Shown: piece after piece, positions 33,027 through 59,727 of the stretch
Position numbering within the stretch: position 1 is the stretch's first letter
How the letters are laid out: each line of letters begins with the position of its first letter
From: Escherichia coli
Lineage (GTDB): Bacteria > Pseudomonadota > Gammaproteobacteria > Enterobacterales > Enterobacteriaceae
Direction: 5' to 3' (one strand)
Assembly (NCBI GenBank): GCA_009729775.1
Contig: GCA_009729775.1_4081.1
Length of the DNA stretch: 64,000 nucleotides
Notes under the pieces: generated by a model
What the model saw: the letters and a program-made list of their open reading frames with translations, nothing else
The model's database searches: none
What the model was told of the DNA's origin: nothing
Position numbers and translations under genes: made by a program

Positions 33027-33611
33027 CTATTTCAGTACTTTAGTCAATGCTTTCACAGCGGTTTCGAGTTGAGCATAGTCGTTAATTGTAAGGTAATGAA
33101 TACCATGTGCCTTCATTTCAGCATCTATTTTACTATATAAATCAAACATGTCAAGGATATGATTGTATGCATATGAAGTATTTGAAACACACAATTCTTG
33201 GAACAAACGTTCTTCCAAGTCATTCACAACTTCTCCATGAATATCAAGTACTACACCATCTTTGTAAGTGTAGTACTCTTCACTCCACTCTTCAGAAAGT
33301 CGGAACAGTAACGGATTCCCGCCGAACACTTCCATGTCATAGGAATTTATCTCACTAAGTAGTGTTTCACCTGGTTCTGGTGTGAAGTCAAAATATGCGA
33401 GTGTTGTACCATCATAGTCCTTGAGTGATATACCAGTATGATTTAAGGTTACTTCACCATAATTATTATTCTTGAACTTGATTTTGATATTAATCTCAAT
33501 GTATTTTATTGTCTCATCATCACTGAAATTGTAATCAACTTTATACTTTTTCCAAAGAAGTTTGATATCTTTGAAGTACTTTAATTTACTTTCAATTTCT
33601 TTAAAGTCCAT
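33027..33611 (-). CDS. family A paralog
   Basis: motif EERLFQELCVS. Confidence 0.5.
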   Translation of the reverse strand: MDFKEIESKLKYFKDIKLLWKKYKVDYNFSDDETIKYIEINIKIKFKNNNYGEVTLNHTGISLKDYDGTTLAYFDFTPEPGETLLSEINSYDMEVFGGNPLLFRLSEEWSEEYYTYKDGVVLDIHGEVVNDLEERLFQELCVSNTSYAYNHILDMFDLYSKIDAEMKAHGIHYLTINDYAQLETAVKALTKVLK

Positions 33612-34203
33612 CTGGAACCACCATTTCTTGAATGTGCTTACATTTTATATTTGCCATATTGGTATGTAATATAATGCTGTGTTTACGCAATGATTTTACT
33701 TTGTAGCACTCATTGAGTACTGAAATAATTCCCCATAACTCTTCTACACTAATAGTGATAGGTTCACTTGTACTCAGTTGCATCAGTGCTGCTTGAACAT
33801 CATCTTTGTTATTAATAGTGAACTGGATTCCTCTTTTGAGAATTTTAGTTTTTGGATTGTACTCAGCTAATACATCACCTTCTGGATAACCCTCATGAAG
33901 TAATAATGTTGTTTCAAAATCACCGCAGTTGAAGTTAATTTCATCATAATCAGGTACACAAATGTTCCCTTCCCCGTACTCATTAGGTTCAGATTCTAGT
34001 GTTAAAATACGCTGAGTCTCATTGCTCAGGATGATAGAATCATTCCAGTACTGGGTAGTGAATGCTCTACGTTTCTTTTGAAAGCACATACTCGACATTG
34101 AACCATACTTCTTGTATATGGACTTCTTGAACTCAATAGCAGCAGGAGCCACCTTGATAACTTCACGAATTAAGTCAATAGCTTCTTGATAACTTTTTCT
34201 CAT
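33601..34203 (-). CDS. family A paralog (divergent)
   Basis: motif QAALMQLSTSE. Confidence 0.5.
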   Translation of the reverse strand: MRKSYQEAIDLIREVIKVAPAAIEFKKSIYKKYGSMSSMCFQKKRRAFTTQYWNDSIILSNETQRILTLESEPNEYGEGNICVPDYDEINFNCGDFETTLLLHEGYPEGDVLAEYNPKTKILKRGIQFTINNKDDVQAALMQLSTSEPITISVEELWGIISVLNECYKVKSLRKHSIILHTNMANIKCKHIQEMVVPDGL

Positions 34204-34751
34204 TTATCGTATCCATATAAAATATGATCTAGTGTACTTTGTACTTCTTCATGAAAGAATGAAGGGTAAACTTGTATCAATTTATCTTTAAGTTCAAGGG
34301 AATGGCATAGTTCTAATGTTTTGTAACAATCCTCGTACTGTGCCAGATCATGTAATGTACTTAACTGAAAATGTTGTTCTTCGGAGTACAATAAATCATA
34401 AACCATATTATCGGATAAAAGATTAGATTTGATTGAAGGATCAAGTACTGTCTGGTGGTGACCAACCCAAAAGATAGCTTTTGAGTTAATGTTATTACAA
34501 CCCCATCCTTTCCCCATCTTTTGGTGAATAGCAAATACACAGGAATCATACAAATTAATGCTCAGACGTTCTTCGTCTGCATGGATAGTTACACCATCAA
34601 TAGATAGTGTATATTTGAAATCCATAGCCCCCTCACTTCGTGCACGAGAACTAAAGACCAGATATCGATGAATTATGGTATTGATTTTATCTGTCCATCC
34701 ATCAACACATTTGGATGCACATAATGTAAAAAGATCATGATTGTAGTTCAT
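34200..34751 (-). CDS. family A paralog
   Basis: motif EEQHFQLSTLHD. Confidence 0.6.
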   Translation of the reverse strand: MNYNHDLFTLCASKCVDGWTDKINTIIHRYLVFSSRARSEGAMDFKYTLSIDGVTIHADEERLSINLYDSCVFAIHQKMGKGWGCNNINSKAIFWVGHHQTVLDPSIKSNLLSDNMVYDLLYSEEQHFQLSTLHDLAQYEDCYKTLELCHSLELKDKLIQVYPSFFHEEVQSTLDHILYGYDK

Positions 34752-34769
34752 AAAATTCTCCTTTAGGAC

Positions 34770-34798
34770 AATGTATCATACAAAAATACCAGAGTCAA
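34770..34798 (-). promoter_or_regulatory. sigma70-like promoter (TTGACT-17-TACATT, TGn extended -10)
   Basis: Reverse complement reads TTGACTctggtatttttgtatgaTACATT upstream of AAAGGAG RBS and the ATG at 34751. Confidence 0.35.
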
Positions 34799-34812
34799 CC
34801 CCTGGTACGAAT

Positions 34813-35394
34813 TTAATCCATCATAAGTGGGATAATTGCCCATATCTTTTTCATAATCATATCTTCAGTAAAAACAAATGTTTTAGGAGCAGTATATGAT
34901 ATTGACACACCAAATGGAAGTTTGATTGCATCATCAATTATATTATGAATATCAAACCATGTTTTAACATAATCATACGGTGGAAGTTCATGAATTGTAC
35001 TTAACTGAAAGTAATTCTCTTCACCAAAATCACTATATTCAATTTCACAAATTTTAGTGAATTGATGATTCCATTTAGATATAATACTATTTTTATTATT
35101 GTACATAGTAGTTCTATGCATAAAACCATTTTTGCTAGTATGATTTGATATTACGTTTTCTTCAATGTCAGTATCTATTTTAAAATTCATATCAAAGTTG
35201 TAGTACGGACTTGACGATTCTTTGAATTTTAAATGTAAATTGCGATTGTTATTAATTTCAATTTCAATACAAAACACATCTGAATCAAAACGATTAAACT
35301 TGTAATCGTTATCTTCCGGTAGATTCTGTATTTTTTTCATAATACTAAGCATAGGGTGTACTACACTTTTAATAAAATCATTTGTTATTTTCAT
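34813..35394 (-). CDS. family A paralog
   Basis: motif EENYFQLSTIHE. Confidence 0.6.
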   Translation of the reverse strand: MKITNDFIKSVVHPMLSIMKKIQNLPEDNDYKFNRFDSDVFCIEIEINNNRNLHLKFKESSSPYYNFDMNFKIDTDIEENVISNHTSKNGFMHRTTMYNNKNSIISKWNHQFTKICEIEYSDFGEENYFQLSTIHELPPYDYVKTWFDIHNIIDDAIKLPFGVSISYTAPKTFVFTEDMIMKKIWAIIPLMMD

Positions 35395-35887
35395 AGTATT
35401 CCTTTAGAACTTTATATGATTCAACAATACTATCTTGTGTATAATTTGAACTATATACAACAGCACTTGTTTTAGTTGACCATAGATATGACATAAAGGT
35501 TATAACACTACTACATGGACTTAATGTATTGTTTTGAAATTCAATTTCTTCAATGTTATCAGTACTGGTATAGATGAATTGGAAAGTATCCATTGATTTA
35601 TTGGACAGCGATACTATAGTAGAATCCGTACCAGGACTATACATGAATGTCTCATTGCTAATAGTACTATCATTAGTATATGATGGTTTAGGAATATAAA
35701 TCAAACGCATGATATCACGCTCCAGACCTGACTTATTACTTTCCACCAAAGAAATCATATCTATATTTGTTATATGTTCAACACTGACATGGAACTTTTT
35801 GTTTAGAATTACATCTTTTGGTGAATTTTTATATGAAGACAAAATCTCATACAGCTCAACCAATTCTCGTGCATTTAATAAACTCAT
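35378..35887 (-). CDS. family A paralog
   Basis: motif EEIEFQNNTLS. Confidence 0.5.
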   Translation of the reverse strand: MSLLNARELVELYEILSSYKNSPKDVILNKKFHVSVEHITNIDMISLVESNKSGLERDIMRLIYIPKPSYTNDSTISNETFMYSPGTDSTIVSLSNKSMDTFQFIYTSTDNIEEIEFQNNTLSPCSSVITFMSYLWSTKTSAVVYSSNYTQDSIVESYKVLKEYYENNK

Positions 35888-36312
35888 GTTTTGTCTCTTA
35901 ATGAAAGAATATCCTTAGTATAAACTGAAACAGAAATATGATTATATTTCATCATTAATTTATACACATAAGAAGCTAGTACTAAATCGTAAATTAATTT
36001 AGTATTATACAGTACTTGGTATTGTAACGCAAGTGAATCAATATCATCTTTACTTTCAATATCCAGAAATGTACCAAAAATTGTAGTACCGTGTAGATGA
36101 AAAGTGGAATTAATGCAATCAATGCATTCATTGTCCAATAGAGTAGATGATGATGCCCTCGGTGAATCCCAAATAGTCACTGCGTGTATGCCCTCAACGA
36201 ACAAATCTATCCATATTTTGTGTCGTTGTCTTTTTTTTGTTTTATAATTTTCTGGATTTGAAAGTGTAGTTTCAATTATATCCCATATGTACAAACAATC
36301 ATCTCTTGTCAT
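35884..36312 (-). CDS. family A-like paralog (divergent)
   Basis: weak motif DSLALQYQVLYN. Confidence 0.4.
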   Translation of the reverse strand: MTRDDCLYIWDIIETTLSNPENYKTKKRQRHKIWIDLFVEGIHAVTIWDSPRASSSTLLDNECIDCINSTFHLHGTTIFGTFLDIESKDDIDSLALQYQVLYNTKLIYDLVLASYVYKLMMKYNHISVSVYTKDILSLRDKT

Positions 36313-36890
36313 TATAGAACCTTATCCATTGCTGCATTTAATGCTTTTAAACGATCTACATTCAAATTATTGAAGATGTATGTTCCTAACATGTGGAAAT
36401 CGAACTGGTACTTTTTGTATTCATGATAAATTAAACTACAAAAAATAACAGTACTAAGAACCTCTTCAGGTATAACAGTGCTCATCTGGAACAGGTCTTC
36501 TTCAACTGTACTTGATTCTGGATCGATAGCTTTTAACTCATACTCTTCATCACCGAATAGTACTTTAATATTATATAAAACACCAACAGTACTAATATGG
36601 AATGGGTGGTGTGAAAAACTTCCATCATCCTTAATTTGTATATCGGTTCTAATCTCACACTCTTGATTACTTTTATTTTTATTTTTTACAATACAAATAT
36701 TTCTAGCCCCAGAAATAGTAAGAATGCCGTGATCGTAATATTCATTGGACCAACATTTAGATGAAATTGCTACATCACGGATGAGGTATTGTTTTTCAAT
36801 TTCTTTTGAACTACTAACAATTGATAACATTTTTGTACTGATATCATATAATAACTGATGGCGTTCTGTCATATAACTATAAGCGTTCAT
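36312..36890 (-). CDS. family A paralog
   Basis: motif VEEDLFQMSTVI. Confidence 0.6.
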   Translation of the reverse strand: MNAYSYMTERHQLLYDISTKMLSIVSSSKEIEKQYLIRDVAISSKCWSNEYYDHGILTISGARNICIVKNKNKSNQECEIRTDIQIKDDGSFSHHPFHISTVGVLYNIKVLFGDEEYELKAIDPESSTVEEDLFQMSTVIPEEVLSTVIFCSLIYHEYKKYQFDFHMLGTYIFNNLNVDRLKALNAAMDKVL

Positions 36891-37461
36891 ATTTTTCCTT
36901 AACCAATTCTATATTTTGAAGTAGTGTATTCAGAACATCAGTCTTGTAATTGATAAAATCATTGTACATAACTAGTTCACCACAATCAAGAACTTTTGCA
37001 GTATCGTAACAAAGCATTAAGTACTCGAATTCTTTGTAATTGTCCAACAATGATTTCTGGAAAATGAATGCATCTCGAATATCTTCACTTTGGTCTAATT
37101 CTGGTGGAACATCCAACCCAATAAAACCATCATCTTCACTGAAATCAGATTCTACAATTTTATTAATTTTTTCATGTAATGCATTCGCAAATACCATATT
37201 AGAAGAAATAGAACCAATACGTTCACGATTTCTGGATGTGCGAATGTACATAGTAATCGTATCCCATGAACTTTTAATTTTTTTAGAAAATTCATAAGTT
37301 TTATATACATCCAACTGAACTGATCCAAAACGATGTTTGGATTTGTTTTCAATTTTCAATCGATAATCATCAAATTCAACAATTTCTGTAATGTCATGAA
37401 TCTCTGAAAGTTCTGCAATGTCATGCATGAGTCTCAAAATTTTAGTTCTGATATGGTTCAT
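36877..37461 (-). CDS. family A paralog
   Basis: motif RDAFIFQKSLLD. Confidence 0.5.
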   Translation of the reverse strand: MNHIRTKILRLMHDIAELSEIHDITEIVEFDDYRLKIENKSKHRFGSVQLDVYKTYEFSKKIKSSWDTITMYIRTSRNRERIGSISSNMVFANALHEKINKIVESDFSEDDGFIGLDVPPELDQSEDIRDAFIFQKSLLDNYKEFEYLMLCYDTAKVLDCGELVMYNDFINYKTDVLNTLLQNIELVKEKYERL

Positions 37462-38036
37462 TGTGCATCCTCGAATTTAACAGGTACATGTTCATTAATG
37501 AAATTCTTAAGAGCCTGTACTAAATCCTCTAATTCTTTTGTACTGTATTTTAAAATAGTTTTAAAGTGAATCAAATCTTTTCTTTCCATGATCTTTGGAA
37601 TTTTATATGCTAACTCTAAACAGCGTACAGTACTGGCATCATACAAAAGGTTTGCGTTGAACATTAGAACATTGTATTCATCAGATGAAATTTTATAATT
37701 ATATGTATCAATCACTTCATGTGTGTATAAATTCTTATACACAATTTTATTCTCACTGAAGTTTGAGCAAACGCACAGATAATCGTTGTAAAATGAAGAA
37801 CGATAATCTTGTTTACGTTGTACATCTGCTATGATTTGTAATACTGTATATTTTTCTTCAGAATCCAACTCAATGTTAGCATAACTGCTCGCAGTTTCAG
37901 ATACAAGGATATTGATGTTATATTTCTCATTAACTTTAATGTACTGGCGTGAGCCAGTATCAGGAATGAACTTAAAACAATGCTTCAGAAGTAATGTGAC
38001 TTCTTTAATTAATTCAGTACTCATAGATTCCTCCAA
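37458..38036 (-). CDS. family A-like paralog (divergent)
   Basis: weak motif DEYNVLMFNANLLYD; GGAGG RBS. Confidence 0.45.
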   Translation of the reverse strand: MEESMSTELIKEVTLLLKHCFKFIPDTGSRQYIKVNEKYNINILVSETASSYANIELDSEEKYTVLQIIADVQRKQDYRSSFYNDYLCVCSNFSENKIVYKNLYTHEVIDTYNYKISSDEYNVLMFNANLLYDASTVRCLELAYKIPKIMERKDLIHFKTILKYSTKELEDLVQALKNFINEHVPVKFEDAQ

Positions 38037-38051
38037 CTCTAGTTAAAATCA

Positions 38052-38080
38052 AGTATAACACACCTGAATGCTCTTGTAAA
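38052..38080 (-). promoter_or_regulatory. sigma70-like promoter (TTTACA-17-TATACT)
   Basis: Reverse complement reads TTTACAagagcattcaggtgtgtTATACT between a terminator and the gene starting at 38036. Confidence 0.35.
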
Positions 38081-38089
38081 GCCATAAAC

Positions 38090-38112
38090 ACAAAAAGACC
38101 CATACGGGTCTT
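38090..38112 (-). terminator. rho-independent terminator
   Basis: AGACCC-atac-GGGTCT with T5 on minus strand. Confidence 0.6.
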
Positions 38113-38630
38113 TATTTTGGTAAAACACTGTCAATGTACGCTAGAACCTCATCTCGAAGGTACGTTCCATCTATAGTTAGGTAATAGTTCATGGGAATAT
38201 CACTCCCAACCTTCTCATAAATTTTCATACATGATATCACATCTTCATCACAAATGGTACTCAATTGAAAAAGAACTTCATCGGTTAACGGTACGATATC
38301 ATGTTTAGATAGGGGATTTGTATTTTCATTCAACACAATATTAATCAAGTTAGGAGTATTCTTTGACGAAATATAACGATGCTTACTACGAATTACCATT
38401 CTCGATAGTGAAATACTGGAACTCCATCTTGGATCAACATCTTCATATGATAACGATATTAACATCTCGTGAAAATCTTGAAATTTCATTGACGCATAAT
38501 ATGTTTTATCCTCACCGTACATACCAAATGATTTAAATTCAATATCCCCCACTTTGTATGTATCGACATCATTATTTGAGAACTTTATTAAACTATTAAT
38601 TAGTCTAATTAGAATATCATCTTTATCCAT
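38112..38630 (-). CDS. family A paralog
   Basis: motif TDEVLFQLSTICD; start trimmed to MDKDD to remove overlap. Confidence 0.55.
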   Translation of the reverse strand: MDKDDILIRLINSLIKFSNNDVDTYKVGDIEFKSFGMYGEDKTYYASMKFQDFHEMLISLSYEDVDPRWSSSISLSRMVIRSKHRYISSKNTPNLINIVLNENTNPLSKHDIVPLTDEVLFQLSTICDEDVISCMKIYEKVGSDIPMNYYLTIDGTYLRDEVLAYIDSVLPK

Positions 38631-39186
38631 TCTTAAATAACTCCAAGTGCATGTCGTATAAATCTCTGAAGTCTTCATAGAAATCTTTTTCTTCGAGAAT
38701 ATTCTTTAAACTGGGAATCTCTTCCATAATTTCATCTATATCTGATTCTATGAAAAATCCTGATGGATTATCGTAGTTTTGTAACAGATAACTGAAAGTA
38801 ATAATGTAAAGAAGTTCATTAGGATTGTGAATTAAACTTAGCTGGAACATAGCTGATTCTAAATCTGATTCAGTACTAAGATCAACCCAACGTGAATTTC
38901 TATAATCAACTCGTACTTGACTTGTATTTGGATTCCATGTGAAGCAATGTGTACCAATATGACCTATACAACCAACCCTTGTACTGTCTCCGGTATCAAC
39001 ACTGATATCAACAAATAGTTCAATACCGATATCGGTTGATGTTACACGACCTTTTTTCAGAAATAAATCATTATCCTTACGAAATTGTTTGGATGAAAGA
39101 GTGTCAATGATGCACATCAATGTTTTTGCAAATGCAACACAATGACGAAATTCAAGCCTATGAAATTGGTAATCATTGATATTCAT
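38623..39186 (-). CDS. family A paralog
   Basis: motif LESAMFQLSLIHN. Confidence 0.55.
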   Translation of the reverse strand: MNINDYQFHRLEFRHCVAFAKTLMCIIDTLSSKQFRKDNDLFLKKGRVTSTDIGIELFVDISVDTGDSTRVGCIGHIGTHCFTWNPNTSQVRVDYRNSRWVDLSTESDLESAMFQLSLIHNPNELLYIITFSYLLQNYDNPSGFFIESDIDEIMEEIPSLKNILEEKDFYEDFRDLYDMHLELFKNG

Positions 39187-39725
39187 AATTCAACCCTCAA
39201 TATTTTATCAGCAATTGATATAACCTTATCATTGAATACATTACCAATCTCAATCCTTATATACATAGCAGGTGGAATCTTTCCTTGTAGTGAATAATAT
39301 GTTTGTATACCTAAGTACTCATTATCTGATAATGAAAATTTGATTCTCTCCATATCAATGTCTGTTACTGGTAAATCTATCATTTCATAATGGTAGTCAA
39401 CGTTTTCAGTGTATATTTTATCGAAGTAATTTGAATAATCACTACTAATATAGATGCTATCATCACGAATAATCACTTTATAATCAGAAGGTTCAAATTT
39501 ATCTTTAGAAGAAAAGAATGCATCATCTATCTTCTCTTCTCTTATACCGAATAACATTTTACCATCATATTTTACATCAAGAATACTACCTAGTATATTA
39601 ATGGTACAATGCTCATCAATATTATGACGTAAAGAACGAGTCTTGTATTTTGGGTTAATGAAAATTTTCATTAATTTTATACAAATTTCAGTAATGCATT
39701 TTACATTCTCATTTTCTATGTACAT
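39183..39725 (-). CDS. family A-like paralog (divergent)
   Basis: weak motif ERIKFSLSDNEY. Confidence 0.4.
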   Translation of the reverse strand: MYIENENVKCITEICIKLMKIFINPKYKTRSLRHNIDEHCTINILGSILDVKYDGKMLFGIREEKIDDAFFSSKDKFEPSDYKVIIRDDSIYISSDYSNYFDKIYTENVDYHYEMIDLPVTDIDMERIKFSLSDNEYLGIQTYYSLQGKIPPAMYIRIEIGNVFNDKVISIADKILRVEL

Positions 39726-40212
39726 TAAAAGCCCTCTTTAATTCTTTTACATTTTTAATGAATACTTTCATTGCAGAAATCTCAAAAGATAATGTATTAA
39801 ATTTGCAGTACTTTTTAAAGTACGACATAATATATAACATTTTGAGTTCTTTTTCTGTATAAATTAAACTGTTTTGAAAGTAACTTTCTTCGGAAATGTC
39901 CGTAAGAAAAGAATAAAATGTATTTTGCTTGTGCACAATTTTAATACTATCAGACCAAGATTTGTAAGAAACGTAATCAGTACGTGCAAAATCATATAGT
40001 GAATTAGATGTATCTGTGTATGTTTCCGAGAACACAATCTTATATATCTTATCTTGAATTCGAGAACATATGTACCTATGGTCATCTGTCTCACTGATTG
40101 CAATGTATCTATGGAGTAAATCTTTATGAGCATTGATGAACTCAAACACTTCTAAACACTCCCTAGCGAACTTCATAGTTTCTCTGTACTTTCGGTTCAT
40201 TAGTCTCTCCAA
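39709..40212 (-). CDS. family A paralog
   Basis: motif SEESYFQNSLIY. Confidence 0.6.
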   Translation of the reverse strand: MERLMNRKYRETMKFARECLEVFEFINAHKDLLHRYIAISETDDHRYICSRIQDKIYKIVFSETYTDTSNSLYDFARTDYVSYKSWSDSIKIVHKQNTFYSFLTDISEESYFQNSLIYTEKELKMLYIMSYFKKYCKFNTLSFEISAMKVFIKNVKELKRAFNVHRK

Positions 40213-40613
40213 ACTTTACCAGGGAAGTGTTTCTCGTAGTACTCATCATCACTTAACATATAATCAGGAGTTTCTACTTCTATGGTTTTGAAGATTGTTT
40301 CTGGAATGTGTGTGACTTTATTGGGTTGTACTTTATGTTCGCGTAAAACCTTCTGTATCGCTCCTAGACGTTGTAAATCGATACATGTAGGAAAGACTAA
40401 GCTGTACTGAAATAACTCATCAGGGGTCATTATAGACACATCTTTAGCTTGTTTGATTTGATAATTAGTACTAATGAATATATCAAATCCTTGTACAGCA
40501 TTATAGCTTACATAGGTTGTTTTATTTTTGTCAATAGGAGCACTTAAACGATATCCATATATCCCGTGTTGGTCAACAACACATCGTTGCATAATTTTAA
40601 TCATTTCGAACAT
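40200..40613 (-). CDS. family A paralog
   Basis: motif PDELFQYSLVF. Confidence 0.6.
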   Translation of the reverse strand: MFEMIKIMQRCVVDQHGIYGYRLSAPIDKNKTTYVSYNAVQGFDIFISTNYQIKQAKDVSIMTPDELFQYSLVFPTCIDLQRLGAIQKVLREHKVQPNKVTHIPETIFKTIEVETPDYMLSDDEYYEKHFPGKVWRD

Positions 40614-41892: not shown

Positions 41893-41925
41893 TGTGATAT
41901 AACCCTTTACAATTAATATAAAGAG

Positions 41926-42488: not shown

Positions 42489-42495
42489 ATAAACC

Positions 42496-43545: not shown

Positions 43546-43550
43546 TTGTT

Positions 43551-51243: not shown

Positions 51244-51397
51244 TGGTGTACTGTGAACTCAGCACCACTAATAGGTAATCTATATTGTAAGCACGATTTC
51301 CTCGTTGACTAGCACGGCTGGAATAAAGAATATTATCCACATATGTATTGAACTGATCTTCAAATAACTCTTTCATCAGCATTATCCCATCACATAA

Positions 51398-51940: not shown

Positions 51941-51950
51941 TGTACTTTCC

Positions 51951-52295
51951 TTACATATTTGTACCGAACAAAACGGAACTTTGAATGCCATTAATCGACA
52001 CTTCATGTACATATATATTTTGTCTGAATACCTGAAGCAATTGAACTAAACTTTGTTGCATAATAATATGCATATGTACATTATCAAAGGCCGTTTCGTA
52101 TTGGAATCGTGCAGCTTCATCTTCTATGAAATTCGGAACTTGGACTGGATTTTCAAAATTTGTCCTTGTACTGAACTGTACATCATTGTCCTGTACCTTA
52201 ATACCATATGAATTATCATTGTTATCAACTACATCAAATTCAATTAAACTACCATCTTTACTGACGTTTACTATATAAACCGAAAATCGACTCAT
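51951..52295 (-). CDS. family A-like paralog
   Basis: motif EDEAARFQYETAFD. Confidence 0.5.
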   Translation of the reverse strand: MSRFSVYIVNVSKDGSLIEFDVVDNNDNSYGIKVQDNDVQFSTRTNFENPVQVPNFIEDEAARFQYETAFDNVHMHIIMQQSLVQLLQVFRQNIYVHEVSINGIQSSVLFGTNM

Positions 52296-52807
52296 AAACC
52301 TATTTCCTCTAAATCTTTGACAAATGTATCATAATCCGATAATGACAAAAATATGTCTGTACTGATGTTTTGACGTAATGTATTAAACAAATTATGTACC
52401 TGTAATAAATCAGGTGCATAAATCAGGGATTGCTGGAAATACGATTCTTCTGTATCTAATATATCCCTGCACTCTATTTCACGAACTCGTTGGTATATTG
52501 AATTTAATAATACATTTTCATCTTTGAGCATTGGAAGGTATCGGATGTACATGTGCTCCATCATCTCATCCTGGATTGAACCCCTGAACTGCAACACGTA
52601 TTCAAAACACATCACTACATCTTGTAGGTAATTGGCACTGTAATTATTGCTGTAAACAATCTTATGACTTCTGAACTCATCATCATTTCTGAACCAATTG
52701 TCACCTACTTTGGTGTACTTATGACTAAGCTTCCCATCCTCCAACGCTCGAATGAACTTCATAATGTTAATTGCAAAATCATATGAATGATGCTTGTGTT
52801 GATGCAT
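52292..52807 (-). CDS. family A paralog
   Basis: motif TEESYFQQSLIY. Confidence 0.6.
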   Translation of the reverse strand: MHQHKHHSYDFAINIMKFIRALEDGKLSHKYTKVGDNWFRNDDEFRSHKIVYSNNYSANYLQDVVMCFEYVLQFRGSIQDEMMEHMYIRYLPMLKDENVLLNSIYQRVREIECRDILDTEESYFQQSLIYAPDLLQVHNLFNTLRQNISTDIFLSLSDYDTFVKDLEEIGL

Positions 52808-52815
52808 TTTTTACC

Positions 52816-53010
52816 TCAATTCTGTCCGAAAAAATAACCAAAATGTTTAAAGCAAGAAAGCATTACTATGTTCATCACTCTATCATCAAATTCATCTTGT
52901 GTTTCTGCACATAATGTTTCACAGATATTCAAATGTAATAATTCAAGCTGGAAACTGTCGGTGAACCAATCAAACTTACGGTATTTTTGTTTAACATCAA
53001 CTGTAAGCAT
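52816..53010 (-). CDS. small hypothetical protein
   Basis: 64 aa ORF filling the gap between neighbours. Confidence 0.4.
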   Translation of the reverse strand: MLTVDVKQKYRKFDWFTDSFQLELLHLNICETLCAETQDEFDDRVMNIVMLSCFKHFGYFFGQN

Positions 53011-53011
53011 A

Positions 53012-53635
53012 CTATATATCCAACCCTTTTACAACATCTACGAAATGTTCAAACACTTCTTTTGAAAAATAACCACCTTCACAAAAAAGCATACTAAACG
53101 GTGGCAGCATGTCCGATAACTCTTTAGCTAAATTGATTTCTGCTCTTAACTCTTGAACATCAATGATATCATGTACTAAAGATAATTGAAACATGAATGC
53201 ATCTACATCTTCATTCATTTCTGAATTGTAATATAACTCTTCAGGGAATTTGTCGGTTTCGTAATAATAAAAAACTTTATTGTTGAACACACCACTAATA
53301 GGAACATCATTTTCATCTTTCTTTGAAATGTTTGTTTCCCATGACTCTATATTATTAGGAACAAAAAAATCATAGGCTGACTTTGAACCCTGTACTGAAT
53401 CCAACTTTATTCCATAATATTCCGTATCCATGTATTTCTGCTGTAATGTAATACCACGTGTACTGACATTCACTTGGAATATATCATCTTTATCTGGAAC
53501 ACTAAATGGAATACATAACACTGAATTCTCAGGGTATTTGGCAATGAATGCATCCAGCACTTTATTAAGCACCGGAATGGCAATTTTACTGTACTGCATC
53601 AAATCATACATTTTAATTCTGGTCATATCATTCAC
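53012..53635 (-). CDS. family A paralog
   Basis: motif DVDAFMFQLSLVHD. Confidence 0.55.
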   Translation of the reverse strand: MNDMTRIKMYDLMQYSKIAIPVLNKVLDAFIAKYPENSVLCIPFSVPDKDDIFQVNVSTRGITLQQKYMDTEYYGIKLDSVQGSKSAYDFFVPNNIESWETNISKKDENDVPISGVFNNKVFYYYETDKFPEELYYNSEMNEDVDAFMFQLSLVHDIIDVQELRAEINLAKELSDMLPPFSMLFCEGGYFSKEVFEHFVDVVKGLDI

Positions 53636-54167
53636 CTGTGTATGTTTTCACCCTTAGCGATTCAAAATCCCATACATCACTGATTGTACCATTGTGCCTG
53701 TAATCATAATATTCTACTAATACATTATACAATAACTTCAACGATACAAATTCATGATTCCACGGAGCTTTATTCTCATGAACACATTTGGTGATATAAG
53801 GTATAATATATAAACTAAACAACACTAATGGTGAATGTATACATTGCATTTGAAAATATTCTTCTTCTTGCATACAATGTTCAGGAATAATTAGATCATA
53901 ATGTGTCTCAAATAAATGTAAACCTATTGTGGTTTTTTTCGTATCACATGCGTACCATATTGTACTATCCGAAATAAATGGAATGATACCATTATTGTTT
54001 GCAATGTACATCATATGGTAAGAGCGATTTGTCTTGTTAAATATCTCGATACTTTCGATATTACTACAAATCATGTATTCAAGGCAATCAATGATCTTAT
54101 CTTTAAATGTACCAATTTCATTGAATGACATTGCTTTCTGTACTTTTGATACTGTTGTACTGCTCAT
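53628..54167 (-). CDS. family A paralog
   Basis: motif QEEEYFQMQCIH. Confidence 0.55.
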   Translation of the reverse strand: MSSTTVSKVQKAMSFNEIGTFKDKIIDCLEYMICSNIESIEIFNKTNRSYHMMYIANNNGIIPFISDSTIWYACDTKKTTIGLHLFETHYDLIIPEHCMQEEEYFQMQCIHSPLVLFSLYIIPYITKCVHENKAPWNHEFVSLKLLYNVLVEYYDYRHNGTISDVWDFESLRVKTYTGE

Positions 54168-54706
54168 ATGTTATCCTTAAAAAAATCCAAATACTCTTCA
54201 TTGAAAGCATATGTATCATCTTTTTTGTTATGCACCACATAATCATAAAGAGCTATGAATGCAGGGATTATGATCTTACATGATTTATTATTGTATTTGT
54301 GGTACTCCAAATCAACGGTGTTCAATTTAGCAATAAGCATAGCAACAAAGATATCTTCATGGCGATGTACTGTACTGTACTGAAAATACTCATCCTCTCC
54401 AATATCTGGATGATATAACGGTATAACCAAATTATTACGAATTGACATCTTATATTTTTGTAATGCAGCTAAATGTATGAACCACAATCTATCTTCATTG
54501 AAATATGGAAAAATAATTTTGTCTGTGCTAATAAAAATTTCTTCATTTCGATTATTTGTCACAAGAGGTGCATACATTTTAATTTTTGCAGATCTAATAA
54601 TTAAATTAAAAATATAATGAATCTTATGAACTGCACTTGATGCATCTTCGTATGTACTTGGGATTATGAAACTCACTATATGTTCTCCTTTAAAATGATT
54701 ACACAT
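54164..54706 (-). CDS. family A paralog
   Basis: motif GEDEYFQYSTVH; start trimmed to MCNHFKG (uncertain). Confidence 0.5.
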   Translation of the reverse strand: MCNHFKGEHIVSFIIPSTYEDASSAVHKIHYIFNLIIRSAKIKMYAPLVTNNRNEEIFISTDKIIFPYFNEDRLWFIHLAALQKYKMSIRNNLVIPLYHPDIGEDEYFQYSTVHRHEDIFVAMLIAKLNTVDLEYHKYNNKSCKIIIPAFIALYDYVVHNKKDDTYAFNEEYLDFFKDNI

Positions 54707-54758
54707 GATAACAGCTTTGCACTTCTTTGTCAATACCAAAACGAAAAAAGCCCATATC

Positions 54759-55265
54759 TTACGATACAGGCGTGCTGGGAATGTTGATTTGGATTTCATT
54801 GTACAAATCATCAATATATAGACATGAAAAAAACACACTATCTTTTAATATATTGTTGTGATAAAGCATTTTAAATACTACATAAAAAAATAAATCAATA
54901 TCATCGTGGACTAAATTCTGCTGGAACCACCACTCGTCTGTTAAATCTTGTGCATTAAAATCATCAGGAACTTCAATGAACGACATATCACAATCTTCTT
55001 TGTACTCAAACCACATGTCGTCATTCGGATAACGTTCATGCTTCTCTGGGTAACAATTGCTGGGATTAAATGTTAAAATATTAAACCCCGTAGAGCAACG
55101 TTCTTTATTTAAAAATGTATTATTCCATACCTGATATTTTTCACCAACATCAAGCTCTTCTGTTACTGATTTTATTGCACATAATGTACTGTATATTGTT
55201 TCTATCTTGTGAACATATTTAAATGCAGCATCTAAGCTGAACTCTAAATCATACATGTACTGCAT
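54759..55265 (-). CDS. family A paralog
   Basis: motif TDEWWFQQNLVHDD. Confidence 0.55.
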   Translation of the reverse strand: MQYMYDLEFSLDAAFKYVHKIETIYSTLCAIKSVTEELDVGEKYQVWNNTFLNKERCSTGFNILTFNPSNCYPEKHERYPNDDMWFEYKEDCDMSFIEVPDDFNAQDLTDEWWFQQNLVHDDIDLFFYVVFKMLYHNNILKDSVFFSCLYIDDLYNEIQINIPSTPVS

Positions 55266-55585
55266 AAAATTACCTCAACTAAAGCAAGGACTGTATTGAA
55301 TTCCACTATACTTGTAATTCCTTGAAGGTACATGTACTTTGCTACTACATATTTCTGTACTAAATTATAATTTTTAAATTCCTCAAAATTGTAATTCAAA
55401 ATGAAATTTGTACTCAAAAATAACTTATGCATCTCTAATGCACTCTGATAATATTGGTACAACTCTCTGATATCAATACTTTGTAAATCACTTTGTTCAT
55501 ATGTATGATAAGGAATGGCTTCAATTTCAATACGATGAAACCATTCTCTTAACTTATTAATATCAAATGTATTATTCAGCTTCAT
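55244..55585 (-). CDS. hypothetical protein
   Basis: 113 aa ORF. Confidence 0.45.
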   Translation of the reverse strand: MKLNNTFDINKLREWFHRIEIEAIPYHTYEQSDLQSIDIRELYQYYQSALEMHKLFLSTNFILNYNFEEFKNYNLVQKYVVAKYMYLQGITSIVEFNTVLALVEVILCSTCMI

Positions 55586-56138
55586 AACTCAATATCTCCA
55601 TTAAACACTCATAAACACCATCAATCGCATAAGCACAAAAATTGAAATTAATTTTATGATTCTTGTGTAATGGACTATTGTGTACTGTACTAATAAGGAC
55701 ATTATAAAACAACAAACGCACTGGCACAAGCAATGAACCTTGGAAAAATTCTTCCTCTGATTTATATGTATTGTACTCTATTGTTTTGTTCGTTTCTGTA
55801 TCATATTTTACCATTACTAATGGGGAATTTTTATTATACCATGCGTACTCTAAATCATTCTTTCCAATAACAGCACCAGGTGCGAAATCCAAAAGACCAA
55901 TAACACTATGGGCATTTGGTGTATCAGGTGTATTGAATCGTTTATCAAAATGACTCGTGCACGCAATATATGTATTGTACTTCGATGGAATGATACCAAT
56001 ACATTTGTGGATGTGACGCTTGTAATCTTTCTGGGCATTATATAAGGCTGCAACAATACAAGCTAACTTTTGTCCCATAAGGATTGCATTAGCGTAGGTG
56101 TACTGAATTTCATTGCTGGTACGGTACTTCGAGGTCAT
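55572..56138 (-). CDS. family A paralog
   Basis: motif SEEEFFQGSLLV. Confidence 0.6.
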   Translation of the reverse strand: MTSKYRTSNEIQYTYANAILMGQKLACIVAALYNAQKDYKRHIHKCIGIIPSKYNTYIACTSHFDKRFNTPDTPNAHSVIGLLDFAPGAVIGKNDLEYAWYNKNSPLVMVKYDTETNKTIEYNTYKSEEEFFQGSLLVPVRLLFYNVLISTVHNSPLHKNHKINFNFCAYAIDGVYECLMEILSYEAE

Positions 56139-56421
56139 AATATTTCCTTTGCCATATCATGGGCTTAAAATCAATAACAGCTTTCTGTATCTTTTTTAAT
56201 AATAAGACATCATAACCACCCGTATCAATCACTAATTGCTGTTGGAACAATTCTTCATCGGATAATGTATTGAAATCTACAAAATAATCTGTGACTATCG
56301 AATCATTTAAATGTGCCATGTACCAACCTGAACTTCTTGAATAAATCAAATTCCACCCATCGTCATTGTCTTCTAATTCAACATAAATCATATCTGGGGT
56401 ATACATCATTTTATACTTCAT
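56110..56421 (-). CDS. family A paralog
   Basis: motif SDEELFQQQLVID. Confidence 0.6.
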   Translation of the reverse strand: MKYKMMYTPDMIYVELEDNDDGWNLIYSRSSGWYMAHLNDSIVTDYFVDFNTLSDEELFQQQLVIDTGGYDVLLLKKIQKAVIDFKPMIWQRKYYDLEVPYQQ

Positions 56422-56965
56422 AACTATATCCTTGCATTAATAAATCATAAACTACATGGACTAAATTTAATTGAATATAAAATTTTAAACCTTTAATTAA
56501 TGGATTCAAATGCATTGTACTGAATAACATTAGATACATCATCTCATGCGGTTTTGTGATTAATGATTTTTGAAATACTTCAGCTTCATCATAAGGGTCT
56601 ATGAACTGAAATTTGTCTTCATCATAATTTGTATTGGAATGCTGATATATAAAATAATCATCATTGGTATTGTACCACAAATACCCTTCGAATCCTGTAC
56701 TAACACCTTTGGTCAATGGGGATGCTGATACTGGATTTGAACTGATTAATGCACCTACATCAACAATCCCCGTTGTATCATATTCGATTTCAACATCAAT
56801 GTCAATATCAATGTATTTCCTTGCGATATCTGCGTTTATGGACAAATACAAACTACCACCTGTCCTCTGACTCAGGATTCCATCTATCTGCGATATAGGA
56901 TGGTTGTTATTGAGGATAAGCATTATTGTACTTATCTTGTGTGCTAATAACTCTATCTCATTCAT
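56411..56965 (-). CDS. family A paralog
   Basis: motif DEAEVFQKSLIT. Confidence 0.55.
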   Translation of the reverse strand: MNEIELLAHKISTIMLILNNNHPISQIDGILSQRTGGSLYLSINADIARKYIDIDIDVEIEYDTTGIVDVGALISSNPVSASPLTKGVSTGFEGYLWYNTNDDYFIYQHSNTNYDEDKFQFIDPYDEAEVFQKSLITKPHEMMYLMLFSTMHLNPLIKGLKFYIQLNLVHVVYDLLMQGYSYEV

Positions 56966-57298
56966 AATTTACCTTATGGATTCGGGTGCAATAAATGATC
57001 TTGATAACTTAAATGCTCTTGTGATATTGCACTTAAATAATAACTAAAATTTTCAATACCACCCTTTAAATGTATATTGTAATACAACTTAATACTTACT
57101 AATAAAGAATCATTTAAATCATTTATTGCTTTTGTATTAACCACTTTCATTAATGTTCTTCTCTTAAAAATCGTTTGATAGCATAATCTAAATAAAATTC
57201 ATAACACATGCTATCTCTGTTCTTTATCCATATTTTGTAATCGGATTTTATATTACTTAACAAATAATTTGTATTAATTGTGTAATAATCTAATCGCC

Positions 57299-57688
57299 CT
57301 AATCGTGCCATTTAATAGGATACTCCTTTCCTTGTACTACATAAGATATAATCCATCCGTAATGAATAGGACTATTCTTTTCTCCTTTAGGAATAAAATA
57401 TAAAGATGTACTAGGATTATAACTGAATAAATCATTATTGTCAAATGTAAAATGAGATAACGTTATCTTCCTTGTACTTGGACTAATAACATTCTTAACA
57501 CCAAACACGGTATCTTGATATTTCTCTGAAAATTCAAACAATGCATCTGTAATTAAATCATTGAATTCTATACATAATGGTTTAAAAGAACCATCATTAT
57601 CTTTGAATTCCTTATATAAAGAGCTTCTTGTATTCAAAAGAAATATTACTTTTTTAAGATCCTGAACTATTTCTGGATTCATATTCAT
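57299..57688 (-). CDS. hypothetical protein
   Basis: 129 aa ORF. Confidence 0.5.
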   Translation of the reverse strand: MNMNPEIVQDLKKVIFLLNTRSSLYKEFKDNDGSFKPLCIEFNDLITDALFEFSEKYQDTVFGVKNVISPSTRKITLSHFTFDNNDLFSYNPSTSLYFIPKGEKNSPIHYGWIISYVVQGKEYPIKWHD

Positions 57689-57920
57689 TTATCTCATTCT
57701 GTATCTTAAGCATCAAAATTTGCATATTAATTTTTTGTACAAGGTGCTTGATAAATTTCTGTGCCATTTCTTCTTGTTCTTTTGTACCAAGATAAAATAA
57801 CAGATTAAATTCTGATAATCGCAAAGAAAAATCTTCATCACCACCCTTTAAACAAAAATCCCTGTACTTTGTAGCGTACAAATATTGGTTTACCTTTTTA
57901 TAATACCCTGTGTTTTGCAT
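57654..57920 (-). CDS. family B paralog
   Basis: motif LFYLGTKEQEEMAQKFIKHL. Confidence 0.55.
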   Translation of the reverse strand: MQNTGYYKKVNQYLYATKYRDFCLKGGDEDFSLRLSEFNLLFYLGTKEQEEMAQKFIKHLVQKINMQILMLKIQNEINEYESRNSSGS

Positions 57921-58108
57921 ACTATCTCCGTTCGCAACGAATTTATATAATAATGAACAAATTGTTCTTGTGAACGTGTTCCAAGAAAAATAAACATATC
58001 AAACTCTGTTGTTTTTAAATTCAATGCATCTTTTGTAAAATTCCTGTTGAATTCCCTGTACTTTTGGGTCTTCCATTCTTGATTAATTGTCTTGTATATC
58101 GATTTCAA
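57890..58108 (-). CDS. family B paralog
   Basis: motif FIFLGTRSQEQFVHYYINSL. Confidence 0.55.
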   Translation of the reverse strand: MKSIYKTINQEWKTQKYREFNRNFTKDALNLKTTEFDMFIFLGTRSQEQFVHYYINSLRTEIVCKTQGIIKR

Positions 58109-58409
58109 TGATTCTCCCTGACATACCTTGTATTAGCTTATCATACATATCGAGCATCACTTTTTGAATATTAATTAGTACTGGCATCGTGCAAATATCA
58201 ATGTCGTATACTAAGCTGTACTGGAATAATTCATCTTCCTGCATTTGTACTAAATTAGGTAAAGGATAATTGTCTGCCTCTTCATCCTGATACTTGAAAT
58301 GCATAACACCATCCTTTTTGTACAAAAGAATGTCAATATCACCTAACTCTTCTGCATAACCAAAAATACATATACTCGATGTTTTTGCTATATTAAATTT
58401 CATATACAT
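58083..58409 (-). CDS. family A paralog
   Basis: motif QEDELFQYSLVYD. Confidence 0.6.
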   Translation of the reverse strand: MYMKFNIAKTSSICIFGYAEELGDIDILLYKKDGVMHFKYQDEEADNYPLPNLVQMQEDELFQYSLVYDIDICTMPVLINIQKVMLDMYDKLIQGMSGRIIEIDIQDN

Positions 58410-58411
58410 CC

Positions 58412-58753
58412 TTATACATAAATTTGATAGACATTTTGAACAAAATACTTTGGAAGACTACTATATGATATCATCTGCCTTTGTACTTCCTTCATCTCTT
58501 CCAATGTCAATCCCAAAGAATCATCGTGTACTATCATGTACTGAAACTCGTCTTCTTCAGAGATATCAAATAAATTCGGTACTGCAATTATATCAATACC
58601 TACCATCCAAAAAAAAGAATTATTACTTTTTCTGTACTCAAAAAAATTCAAAGAAGAACCACTCTGTAAATCAGATACCATAATGGAACATTCATCGTTA
58701 CGTACAATACAATTGAATTTACGCATTATCTCCACCTCTCTCCGTCTGTACAA
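58412..58753 (-). CDS. family A paralog
   Basis: motif SEEDEFQYMIVHD. Confidence 0.55.
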   Translation of the reverse strand: MYRRREVEIMRKFNCIVRNDECSIMVSDLQSGSSLNFFEYRKSNNSFFWMVGIDIIAVPNLFDISEEDEFQYMIVHDDSLGLTLEEMKEVQRQMISYSSLPKYFVQNVYQIYV

Positions 58754-58971
58754 GAGTACTGGTACGTTGTCGTTAGGGTAGGGACCATGTTTGTAATGGG
58801 CATGTTGTTAACAATAACCGTAACAGGCATAAGAATCGTCTCTTCTCTACTCTGTCCTGTCCTTGTGCAATTCATCTTTTGCATTTCATCTGAATCCATG
58901 AAATACAATACAAATGGTGCAATCCCAAGAACAATACACAAGACGATAAGGAAATTTAAAAAATTTAACAT
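58726..58971 (-). CDS. small membrane protein (start uncertain)
   Basis: 81 aa; hydrophobic N-terminus FLIVLCIVLGIAPFVLYF. Confidence 0.35.
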   Translation of the reverse strand: MLNFLNFLIVLCIVLGIAPFVLYFMDSDEMQKMNCTRTGQSREETILMPVTVIVNNMPITNMVPTLTTTYQYSCTDGERWR

Positions 58972-59030
58972 AATTTTTACCCTATGATTAACGTTAGTGT
59001 ACTATATCAGTAATGAAAAGTACTATCAAG

Positions 59031-59417
59031 CTAGTATTGCACTGTTCTAATGAAAGTGCCTGAACTCATGGATTTAAGCTTATGAACCTCTTCCTGTATA
59101 CCCTTGATTAACCCTAAAGGTATAGGTACATCATGTACTAAGCTGTACTGAAAGTATTCTTCTTCAGATAAAGTACTAACATCTGGAACTCCAATTTTAG
59201 TTAGATAATCTTGATGTGTTGACCAATAAATTATATCTTCAGTAGAATTGTACTCCCCATATACTGAACAATATTGATGAATATCTTTCCTGTACCCTTG
59301 AGCAATAAAGAACTTATCTACTGCATTACCAGCATTAATAGAATTCACTTCGATTGTCACAGTACTTGAGCTTGTATAACTCTTAATACTCAACTGTGTG
59401 TTCTTCATAATCACCAT
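59031..59417 (-). CDS. family A paralog
   Basis: motif SEEEYFQYSLVHD. Confidence 0.6.
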   Translation of the reverse strand: MVIMKNTQLSIKSYTSSSTVTIEVNSINAGNAVDKFFIAQGYRKDIHQYCSVYGEYNSTEDIIYWSTHQDYLTKIGVPDVSTLSEEEYFQYSLVHDVPIPLGLIKGIQEEVHKLKSMSSGTFIRTVQY

Positions 59418-59727
59418 TAGGCTCCTGTTTAGATTCTTTCATTAGTACTATCATCTTATGTACTAATGGCATAGGGAACTCTAAATCCCATACTAATGAT
59501 TCCTGGAAGTATTCCTCTGGTGATAAAGTACTTAAATCTTTAATATCAACGTGCTTGTATATTTTATTTTCGTAATTAACAAATGATATATATAAATCAC
59601 TAACATAAGAATCATAGGTAATTGTGAATGGCTTACCCTTGTAATCCATTACATCTCTACATAGACTACTTTTGATATATGTATGTTCAAATGATTTATA
59701 TACCTTGAGTTGTATATTAGTTTTCAT
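59383..59727 (-). CDS. family A paralog
   Basis: motif SPEEYFQESLVWD. Confidence 0.6.
   Translation of the reverse strand: MKTNIQLKVYKSFEHTYIKSSLCRDVMDYKGKPFTITYDSYVSDLYISFVNYENKIYKHVDIKDLSTLSPEEYFQESLVWDLEFPMPLVHKMIVLMKESKQEPNGDYEEHTVEY

Follow-up and report, generated by a model that had tools for sequence, protein, structure and literature searches.

A tandem array of approximately 40 diverged paralogs sharing a 13-residue FQ block in an Asteriusvirus jumbo coliphage

In this study, we have examined a 64,000-nucleotide stretch of DNA (contig GCA_009729775.1_4081.1; the window) in which small genes follow one another in tandem and many of their products carry a short sequence block around a Phe-Gln pair. 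The locus raises the question of whether these genes, referred to here as family A, descend from a common ancestor and, if so, what a phage might gain from maintaining so many of them. The window is Asteriusvirus jumbo coliphage DNA: positions 44,000 to 52,000 share 98.8% identity with phage G17 and 94.7% with 121Q, and the 36 records that match this region are all Escherichia or Salmonella jumbo phages of 310 to 386 kb, in which every gene under the match is annotated as hypothetical. Essentially all of the real genes in the window lie on the minus strand, the GC content is approximately 32%, and the GC skew is negative throughout. We find that family A is a single homologous family with approximately 40 confident and approximately 48 probable copies in the window.

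Membership was established with both a motif expression and profiles. The expression [DE]x1-3 FQ x [SNAQ][LTCVIM][VILMT], run on the minus-strand open reading frames (ORFs), matched 44 of 151 ORFs, whereas 500 rounds of residue shuffling gave 0.26 matches on average and never more than 2. A jackhmmer search seeded with the ORF at 46657-47109 gathered 38 ORFs, with members scoring at least 21 bits and the best of 906 decoys scoring 9.7 bits. With an enlarged profile (jackhmmer/hmmsearch) built from the window members, their ph0011 orthologs, and 144 database representatives, 41 window ORFs exceeded the best of 1,317 shuffled decoys, which reached 12.6 bits. The FQ block is present in 40 of these 41 ORFs, 39 of them between 30,752 and 59,727 and one at 18,405-19,094; the 41st (57,299-57,688; 12.9 bits) lacks it. 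Eight more ORFs that bear the motif but fall slightly under the decoy line are regarded as probable members. For six of them (those beginning at 19091, 33027, 35378, 36877, 46346, and 53012), the motif region aligned to the family profile with hhalign values of 16 to 72%, compared with 2% or less for shuffled controls; for those at 45059 and 51951, hhalign gave just 3 to 9%, and membership is based on the motif together with near-threshold hidden Markov model (HMM) scores. Seven singletons (33601, 37458, 39183, 43551, 31601, 35884, and 55244) were not joined to family A by either jackhmmer or hhalign.

The shared block could in principle have arisen by convergence; however, when the 16 residues around the motif were removed from both the model and the sequences, 31 ORFs still scored above all decoys. 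Since homology survives deletion of the motif, common ancestry reaches beyond it, and a convergent motif in unrelated proteins is ruled out. A first-pass annotation of this DNA, which had reported the array and its motif, had itself named nonhomology of the FQ block as the outcome that would count against a single family; the block proved to be homologous. In the motif-deleted profile, the ORFs at 33601-34203 and 57299-57688 retain weak flank similarity, the motif itself having been lost. The core consensus spans 13 residues, (S/T)-E-E-x-(Y/L)-F-Q-x-S-(T/L)-(V/I)-(Y/H/F/W)-(D/N), with F and Q invariant in 46 of 46 copies. The codons at these conserved positions vary synonymously (F, 25 TTT and 21 TTC; Q, 28 CAG and 18 CAA; S, 24 AGY and 12 TCN), so that selection acts on the protein rather than on a DNA element; this excludes nucleotide-level conservation of the kind expected from an embedded promoter or gene conversion. 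It is concluded that the family A block reflects common descent under protein-level selection.

The tandem array and its motif therefore stand far above chance in both the shuffled and the decoy comparisons, and all family A members are co-oriented on the minus strand, as had been reported. The extent of the array required revision. The approximately 55 copies first proposed were too many, the contiguous array begins at 30,752 rather than 33,027, and it is not the case that nearly every ORF is a member: 39 to 46 of the 69 array ORFs of at least 50 amino acids (aa) belong to family A, the remainder comprising four members of a second small family (family B) and approximately 15 singletons. The family accounts for 64 to 76% of this 28,976-bp stretch. 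Two outlying segments had also been assigned to the family. In the first (18405-19669), 18405-19094 is a member and 19091-19669 is a probable one; in the second (30752-32604), 30752-31249 and 32068-32604 are members, but 31,601-32,074 shows no detectable membership and 31,240-31,653 is doubtful.

Strong similarity between paralogs is confined to two adjacent clusters, one of five genes (46657-48978) and one of four genes (48988-50789), which bear the signature of tandem duplication; copies outside these clusters have diverged too far for pairs to be recognized. Across the family, the median identity between paralogs is approximately 10% and the maximum is approximately 56%. When orthologs in ph0011 were compared, the pooled ratio of nonsynonymous to synonymous substitution rates (dN/dS) was 0.27 over 32 pairs (range, 0.07 to 0.48), and that of neighboring genes was 0.24; amino acid identity between the ortholog pairs ranged from 43 to 98% and dS from 0.1 to 2.2. 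Gene-wide positive selection was rejected, since no member exceeded 0.5, and six members have no ortholog in ph0011. The family had been described as rapidly diversifying; these values point instead to old paralogs under purifying selection. Judged from these comparisons, family A is old and constrained, with mosaic alleles and with members that turn over between strains. It has been proposed as a ratchet idea (Hua et al. 2017) that duplicates fill an enlarged capsid, in which case they would have little individual function, and the dispensability of single members between strains would fit such genome filling. However, the low dN/dS, the intact reading frames, the conservation of the motif at the protein level across genera that lack detectable DNA similarity, and the absence of recent duplicates all speak against it, and we consider this explanation quite improbable.

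Beyond the window, a profile search of 1.84 billion cluster representatives returned 144 clusters at an E value of <1e-3. All but three carry (S/T)EExxFQxS(T/L)(I/V/L)(Y/H) (141/144), the exceptions being two without FQ and one with only an off-register FQ. The clusters sampled for origin came from metagenome contigs and from the Salmonella jumbo phages Munch and SE_PL, and all named homologs are annotated as hypothetical and lack a Pfam domain. A degenerate DNA scan of 2.9 million IMG/VR contigs with one motif variant matched four contigs, all of at least 108 kb; a 345,809-bp IMG/VR contig carries at least 11 members, and two large metagenomic contigs carry at least 10. In phage Munch, at least 19 members form a syntenic array that is bounded by protein-kinase and Dam/nucleotidyltransferase genes, and the same landmarks flank the array in the window. 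With tblastn, the HMM consensus gave no matches and single members gave matches that stayed within the genus. Matches to PHROGs 9317, 12674, 13866, 15629, and 19795 and to approximately 10 single-gene PHROGs were obtained at E values of 1e-56 to 1e-144, all labeled as of unknown function; these groups hold the same proteins and show weak cross-hits, but they split the family into many unconnected groups and do not record its motif or fold. None of the 35 members scanned against Pfam-A came near a gathering score, and PADLOC gave no hits for family A. Taken together, these distributions show that family A is lineage specific and restricted to the RaK2-like jumbo-phage clade.

In G17, two dispersed members lie to the left of the region corresponding to the window and none lies to its right. 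G17_00388 (12296-12691 of the G17 segment; 20.6 bits; EASFFQLSLIHD) adjoins a lysozyme/hub gene, and G17_00418 (28501-28902; 17.7 bits; EETFFQEDTIIN) is 2 kb from tail-fiber genes; their surroundings comprise lysozyme/hub, ribosome-hibernation-factor-like, nucleotidyltransferase, and tail-fiber genes. The dispersal of these two members among structural and nucleotide-metabolism genes, together with the purifying selection, could indicate a function internal to the phage, with family A proteins acting as chaperones or regulators for its own fibers or replication proteins. Such a role is improbable, however, given that approximately 95% of the members are located in the presumed early block, remote from the structural genes, that genera carry very different numbers of copies (at least 19 in Munch and at least 40 here), and that members are gained and lost between close strains.

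The proteins occur in a long form of 150 to 225 aa and a short form of 100 to 130 aa, and in every member the motif block is located 40 to 75 residues before the C terminus. AlphaFold2 (AF2) models were obtained for one long form (46657-47109; predicted local distance difference test score [pLDDT], 88.8; predicted template modeling score [pTM], 0.84) and one short form (49344-49700; pLDDT, 87.5; pTM, 0.83). In the long-form model, an N-terminal helix and seven beta-strands precede the motif helix (103-109; SEEYYFQ), and after a turn the chain continues into a second helix (115-129), a strand comprising residues 135-138 (FYLD), and then a short helix; the hydrophobic helix and FYLD element that had been noticed after the motif are thus present in the long subfamily. 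The short-form model lacks the N-terminal helix; its five strands are followed by the motif helix (65-75), another helix (83-99), and a terminal strand, so that the order sheet, motif helix, helix, strand is common to both. The motif region has a pLDDT of approximately 98 in the long form and 86 to 97 in the short form. In the profile, information per position is 1.7 bits in the 13-residue block, 0.35 in the beta region, and approximately 0.6 in the flanking helices. With a median pI of 5.0 and a mean net charge of -8.6 (down to -26), family A proteins are acidic; they contain no long hydrophobic runs, and they do not combine strong acidity with a known Ocr or ArdA fold as DNA-mimic antirestriction proteins of that type do. 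No solved relative of the predicted fold was found, and structural matches in BFVD are solely to uncharacterized proteins of 121Q, SP27, RaK2, Serratia BF, Yersinia fHe-Yen9-04, and GAP32. The S/T-E-E start of the block and the D/N that follows it resemble helix caps, and for this reason the block is read as structural: it would be a keystone that fixes the helical layer on the sheet.

It can also be envisioned that the nearly invariant EExxFQxS helix docks every member onto a single shared partner (for instance, a protease, chaperone, or polymerase of either the host or the phage), while the variable sheet recruits different targets to it, in which case family A would be a library of adaptors. 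Extreme conservation that is limited to 13 residues, with F and Q invariant and the rest nearly free, is in keeping with this idea, as are the ClpP-like ORF recognized by eye in the window (4881-5576) and the two ORFs, 33601-34203 and 57299-57688, that have flank similarity without the motif. Nevertheless, the helix-cap appearance of the block means that a structural role suffices, and the motif is modeled with high confidence inside the fold; we therefore regard an adaptor library as unlikely, and slightly less likely still in the specific version in which it is modular, operates on a common machine (for example, the nearby ClpP-like protease or a host AAA+ unfoldase), and catches with its hypervariable sheet a different host defense or housekeeping protein for each paralog. 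F-box, BTB, and PRANC families are expanded in large eukaryotic viruses; if the adaptor reading were true, family A would be their counterpart in bacterial viruses, on a fold without a solved relative.

The first-pass annotation had also raised the possibility that these proteins are injected effectors. None of the orthologs (gp404c to gp466c) is among the 62 phAPEC6 virion proteins found by mass spectrometry (MS), within the limit of MS sensitivity, which argues against injection; likewise, by this list, family A lacks the virion presence that characterizes packaged internal or ejection proteins of the T4 IP and phiKZ inner-body types. A related idea is that the block is a short linear motif, namely, a tobacco etch virus (TEV)/3C-like protease site (E-x-x-Y-x-Q|S), a T4 prohead-protease (gp21) site (L-x-E), or a beta-clamp-binding motif resembling QL[SD]LF. 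EEYYFQNS and EEGYFQGS resemble ENLYFQ|S/G, QxSLVF loosely resembles QL[SD]LF, and L-S-E precedes the block. At the TEV/3C consensus positions, Q is invariant at P1, P6 is E in 32 and D in 8 of 46 copies, P3 is Y in only 6 of 46, and P1' is variable and rarely G or S. Whereas a TEV/3C site would lie in an exposed, extended, or disordered segment, AF2 folds the motif into a well-packed helix and turn. Clamp motifs have Leu directly after Q, a position that varies in family A (L in 8 of 46), and the block is internal and folded. All three identities are disfavored by the folded helical context and the variable positions, and we consider it very improbable that family A consists of packaged effectors or that its block is such a linear motif.

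How might the array be expressed? Of the 62 gene junctions annotated in the phAPEC6 counterpart of the array, 44 are overlaps (of 4 nucleotides [nt] in 14 cases and of 1 nt in 7), and 11 are gaps longer than 40 nt, which supports the translational coupling that had been proposed. Several gaps in the array contain sigma70-like promoters, extended -10 boxes resembling TGnTATAAT, and hairpin-plus-T-run terminators (Table 1). Promoter-like sites are not enriched over shuffles (123 versus 126 and 106 versus 120); therefore, the evidence is their placement in gaps and not their number. Terminator-like sites are enriched in the 30- to 50-kb region only (13 versus 5.4 +/- 2.5 in shuffles). From the array to the right end of the linear G17 record, all genes are small and on the minus strand, and many terminators are annotated among them. 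An analogous region of phage CBB, CBB_390-546, was proposed to hold early host-takeover genes on the basis of RpoD-like promoters (PMC5259590).

The reading that we tentatively favor, at slightly short of an even chance, is that family A is an early, cytoplasmic, nonpackaged multigene family of binders or inhibitors of host targets, with the motif as structural keystone and the variable sheet as recognition surface. We postulate that the family expanded by tandem duplication in RaK2-like jumbo phages and then diverged deeply. Early in infection, the sigma70 RNA polymerase of the host would transcribe its members as part of a long leftward block of small genes that, in G17, enters from the right end of the record and includes the array. 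Each protein would be a two-layer alpha/beta module in which the 13-residue block forms an N-capped helix and a turn into the next helix, pinning the helices onto the beta-sheet; the sheet and loops, being free in sequence and length, would provide the target-binding surface, and each member would be aimed at a different host protein, whether defense or housekeeping. Strains would come to differ as alleles are replaced and members are gained or lost. The cytoplasmic, acidic nature of the proteins, the presumed early region with its sigma70-like promoters, the mosaic alleles, and the gene gain and loss are all consistent with a host-interaction role; we infer early expression, host-target binding, an antidefense role, and a purely structural role of the motif.

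Several points weigh against this proposal. Neither the Pfam-A and PADLOC searches nor the database homologs connect any member with a host target or a defense system, and gene-wide dN/dS is the same as in neighboring genes. The alignments behind the AF2 models are shallow (25 paralogs for the long form and 16 for the short form), and a Gln that never varies is not typical of a keystone whose role is purely structural, so that it may instead mark a functional site. Finally, early timing is deduced from promoter-like sequences that are unenriched over shuffles in AT-rich DNA.

The proposed host-targeting family is reminiscent of multigene families in large eukaryotic viruses. The MGF360/505 genes of African swine fever virus (ASFV) and the ankyrin/PRANC and BTB-kelch genes of poxviruses occur as dozens of divergent paralogs in tandem, close to a genome end, in numbers that vary from strain to strain, and they combine a conserved scaffold or docking element with variable surfaces; roles in host range or immune evasion have been shown for them. 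Family A likewise consists of diverged tandem paralogs near a genome end whose copy number varies between strains and genera. Unlike those families, it acts in a bacterial host and has no sequence or fold relation to them, so the analogy is one of working principle. The polyimmunity arrays of SUKH/Imm-type immunity proteins (Zhang, Iyer and Aravind) reportedly also consist of tandem, diversified, small alpha+beta paralogs, as in family A. The T4 early and hyperplastic regions, the SPO1 host-takeover module, and CBB_390-546 similarly contain small, co-oriented, overlapping genes without an assigned function behind sigma70-type promoters near a genome end; however, those blocks are composed mostly of unrelated genes, whereas about two-thirds of the 29-kb block described here belongs to one family. 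In the literature searched, including Asteriusvirus and RaK2-group papers, no description of family A was found; the only prior mention is a one-sentence remark on tandem arrays of "very similar genes" in jumbo phages 121Q and G (Hua et al. 2017, mBio, PMC5646251), repeated in a 2026 review (PMC13282480). That remark gives no coordinates, family definition, motif, structure, or function, and its wording suits the adjacent family B better (median identity, 20%, versus 10% for family A); family B may equally be the array that was meant. Tandem arrays of this kind had been touched on only briefly, and neither family A nor its fold had been characterized.

Table 1. Family A members and intergenic signals in the window. 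Bit scores are from the enlarged profile (best decoy, 12.6 bits) unless stated otherwise; A2 denotes the short-form set.
Feature	Coordinates	Strand	Evidence or details
Main tandem array	30752..59727	-	69 co-oriented ORFs: 39 confident and 7 probable members; 18.6-22.1 kb of 29.0 kb
Outlying member, 229 aa (SEEEHFQLMMM)	18405..19094	-	16.3 bits
Probable outlying member, 192 aa (PEHFQISTLYD)	19091..19669	-	11.6 bits; hhalign 35.5% over 76 columns
Member, long form (GELFQMSTLY)	30752..31249	-	38.3 bits
Member, long form (TEELLFQYSLIL)	32068..32604	-	23.9 bits
Probable member (LEERLFQELCV)	33027..33611	-	hhalign 16% over 48 columns, in register; decoys <=2%
Member (SEEQHFQLSTLHD)	34200..34751	-	36.3 bits
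Gap	34752..34812	-	Terminator-like hairpin (34808-34786) overlapping sigma70-like promoter
Member (GEENYFQLSTIHE)	34813..35394	-	31.9 bits
Probable member (IEEIEFQNNTL)	35378..35887	-	12.4 bits; hhalign 32%
Member (VEEDLFQMSTVI)	36312..36890	-	52.1 bits
Probable member (DAFIFQKSLLD)	36877..37461	-	hhalign 40%
Gap	38037..38113	-	Bidirectional terminator-like hairpin (38113-38094); promoter-like site (38080-38052; TTTACA-17-TATACT with TG)
Member (TDEVLFQLSTICD)	38112..38678	-	52.0 bits
Member (LESAMFQLSLIHN)	38623..39186	-	81.8 bits
Member (SEESYFQNSLIYT)	39709..40212	-	81.5 bits
Member, short form (TPDELFQYSLVF)	40200..40613	-	26.2 bits
Member, short form (SEEELFQQSTIS)	40597..40959	-	51.5 bits
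Member (SEEMYFQGSCIHD)	40925..41419	-	87.0 bits
Member (TEEEFFQYSTVYP)	41416..41892	-	111.0 bits
Perfect sigma70 consensus promoter-like site, upstream of 41416-41892	41893..41955	-	TTGACA-18-TATAAT, extended -10; 12/12 at 41955-41926
Member (NQEYYFQLSLLFP)	41952..42536	-	108.5 bits
Member, short form (DEGELFQESLVFN)	42496..42837	-	29.0 bits
Member (GEEEMFQYSTVFN), no ph0011 ortholog	42816..43259	-	38.0 bits
Member, short form (QEDELFQESLVWD)	43183..43545	-	15.4 bits; 32.9 bits in first profile
Member (TEENIFQNSVLHD)	44144..44704	-	56.7 bits
Probable member (FDEQCFQLSCTD)	45059..45595	-	9.1 bits; motif in register, 43 aa before C terminus
Member (TEEGYFQGSTVYE)	45592..46041	-	99.3 bits
Probable member, short form (HESFIFQESLVWD)	46346..46660	-	11.8 bits; hhalign 38%; aligns with A2
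Member, modeled long form (SEEYYFQNSTVYD), first gene of young 5-gene cluster	46657..47109	-	154.9 bits; AF2 pLDDT 88.8
Member (SEEYYFQNSTLYN)	47087..47575	-	127.4 bits
Member (TEEYYFQQSLIFN)	47575..48018	-	118.8 bits
Member (SEEYYFQQNTIYE)	48015..48485	-	114.2 bits
Member (SEEYYFQQSTVYD), no ph0011 ortholog	48487..48978	-	110.7 bits
Member, short form (DDGELFQAALVFD)	48988..49347	-	17.2 bits; 39.8 bits in a separate search
Member, modeled short form (DTAELFQESLVFD)	49344..49700	-	32.3 bits; AF2 pLDDT 87.5
Member, short form (SEEEFFQESTVWN), no ph0011 ortholog	49700..50071	-	29.1 bits
Member, short form (DDAALFQAALVFD)	50229..50789	-	17.7 bits; phAPEC6 annotation, 378 nt
Member (SDESLFQYSTMYD)	51398..52012	-	55.7 bits
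Probable member, short form (DEAARFQYETAFD)	51951..52295	-	10.7 bits; aligns with A2
Member (TEESYFQQSLIYA)	52292..52807	-	81.7 bits
Probable member (VDAFMFQLSLVHD)	53012..53635	-	11.4 bits; hhalign 72%
Member (QEEEYFQMQCIHS), no ph0011 ortholog	53628..54167	-	45.2 bits
Member (GEDEYFQYSTVHR)	54164..54838	-	46.7 bits
Member (TDEWWFQQNLVHD)	54759..55265	-	66.5 bits
Member (SEEEFFQGSLLVP), no ph0011 ortholog	55572..56138	-	59.0 bits
Member, short form (SDEELFQQQLVID)	56110..56421	-	31.9 bits
Member (DEAEVFQKSLITK)	56411..56965	-	53.1 bits
Member, short form (QEDELFQYSLVYD)	58083..58409	-	37.2 bits
Member, short form (SEEDEFQYMIVHD)	58412..58753	-	32.0 bits
Gap	58972..59030	-	Promoter-like site (TTGATA-17-TATAGT with TG)
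Member, short form (SEEEYFQYSLVHD), no ph0011 ortholog	59031..59417	-	47.2 bits
Member, short form (SPEEYFQESLVWD), most promoter-proximal of array	59383..59727	-	46.0 bits

For two of the listed members, 50229-50789 (TTG start) and 54164-54838 (GTG start), the longest ORFs carry hydrophobic N-terminal extensions of 45 to 60 aa that are absent from the phAPEC6 and ph0011 annotations; these starts are probably too far upstream, and the true starts are probably internal ATGs. Family B comprises 22 proteins of 63 to 96 aa with an LGTNYQE-type block, at 59717-63972, 44694-45084, and 57654-58108; four of them are scattered through the family A array, and eight more lie just past the window in G17, for a total of at least 30. 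It has no Pfam match, and PHROG 4148 lists it as of unknown function. Also inside the array is a 137-aa ORF (32604-33017, minus strand) whose ph0011 ortholog is annotated as a putative ADP-ribosyl transferase; it has no Pfam match, and PHROG 11632 is of unknown function.

Elsewhere in the window, the segment at approximately 26,680-27,080, within an ORF-poor stretch (26,593-27,194), is 97 to 100% identical to ph0011, compared with 80 to 92% in the flanking genes. The sole ORF of this stretch (26620-26868; TTG start) has a dN/dS of 1.5 at a dS of 0.02 and, for this reason, is probably noncoding. A promoter-like sequence (TAATGATATAAT) and a terminator-like hairpin are present at the upstream end of the segment; searches for a tRNA and for Rfam matches were negative, and the RNA fold z-score was -1.2. 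The segment is an unexplained conserved noncoding element. Small paralog groups of 80 to 105 aa include a four-gene tandem set (22277-23686) and a dispersed trio (11552-11803, 14486-14746, and 46038-46346), and by eye many further ORFs of 80 to 100 aa between 10.5 and 24 kb look related. Also by eye, two minus-strand ORFs (914-1522 and 4881-5576) resemble ClpP/SppA-like serine proteases, the first with a signal-peptide-like N terminus, and others, likewise on the minus strand, resemble a DNA ligase (7254-8672), a polynucleotide kinase/phosphatase (14972-15904), and an RNA ligase (17001-18143). If this ligase- and kinase-like trio were a tRNA-repair set, it would fit the remark in the phAPEC6 paper on countering the Prr system.

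In conclusion, family A occupies approximately 19 to 22 kb of an approximately 350-kb genome, its array is kept across several genera of RaK2-like jumbo phages, and its fold is predicted with confidence. A set of 40 or more diverged paralogs is a hallmark of host-virus conflict in large eukaryotic viruses that has hardly been documented or understood in phages. Metagenomes can be searched for further members by means of the sharply defined 13-residue core, which also offers a simple target for mutagenesis. Should family A proteins prove to be target-specific inhibitors, they would amount to a catalogue of 40 or more probes for E. coli defense or housekeeping proteins, and the array could also help to account for the wide range of hosts of these phages, which are of therapeutic interest.

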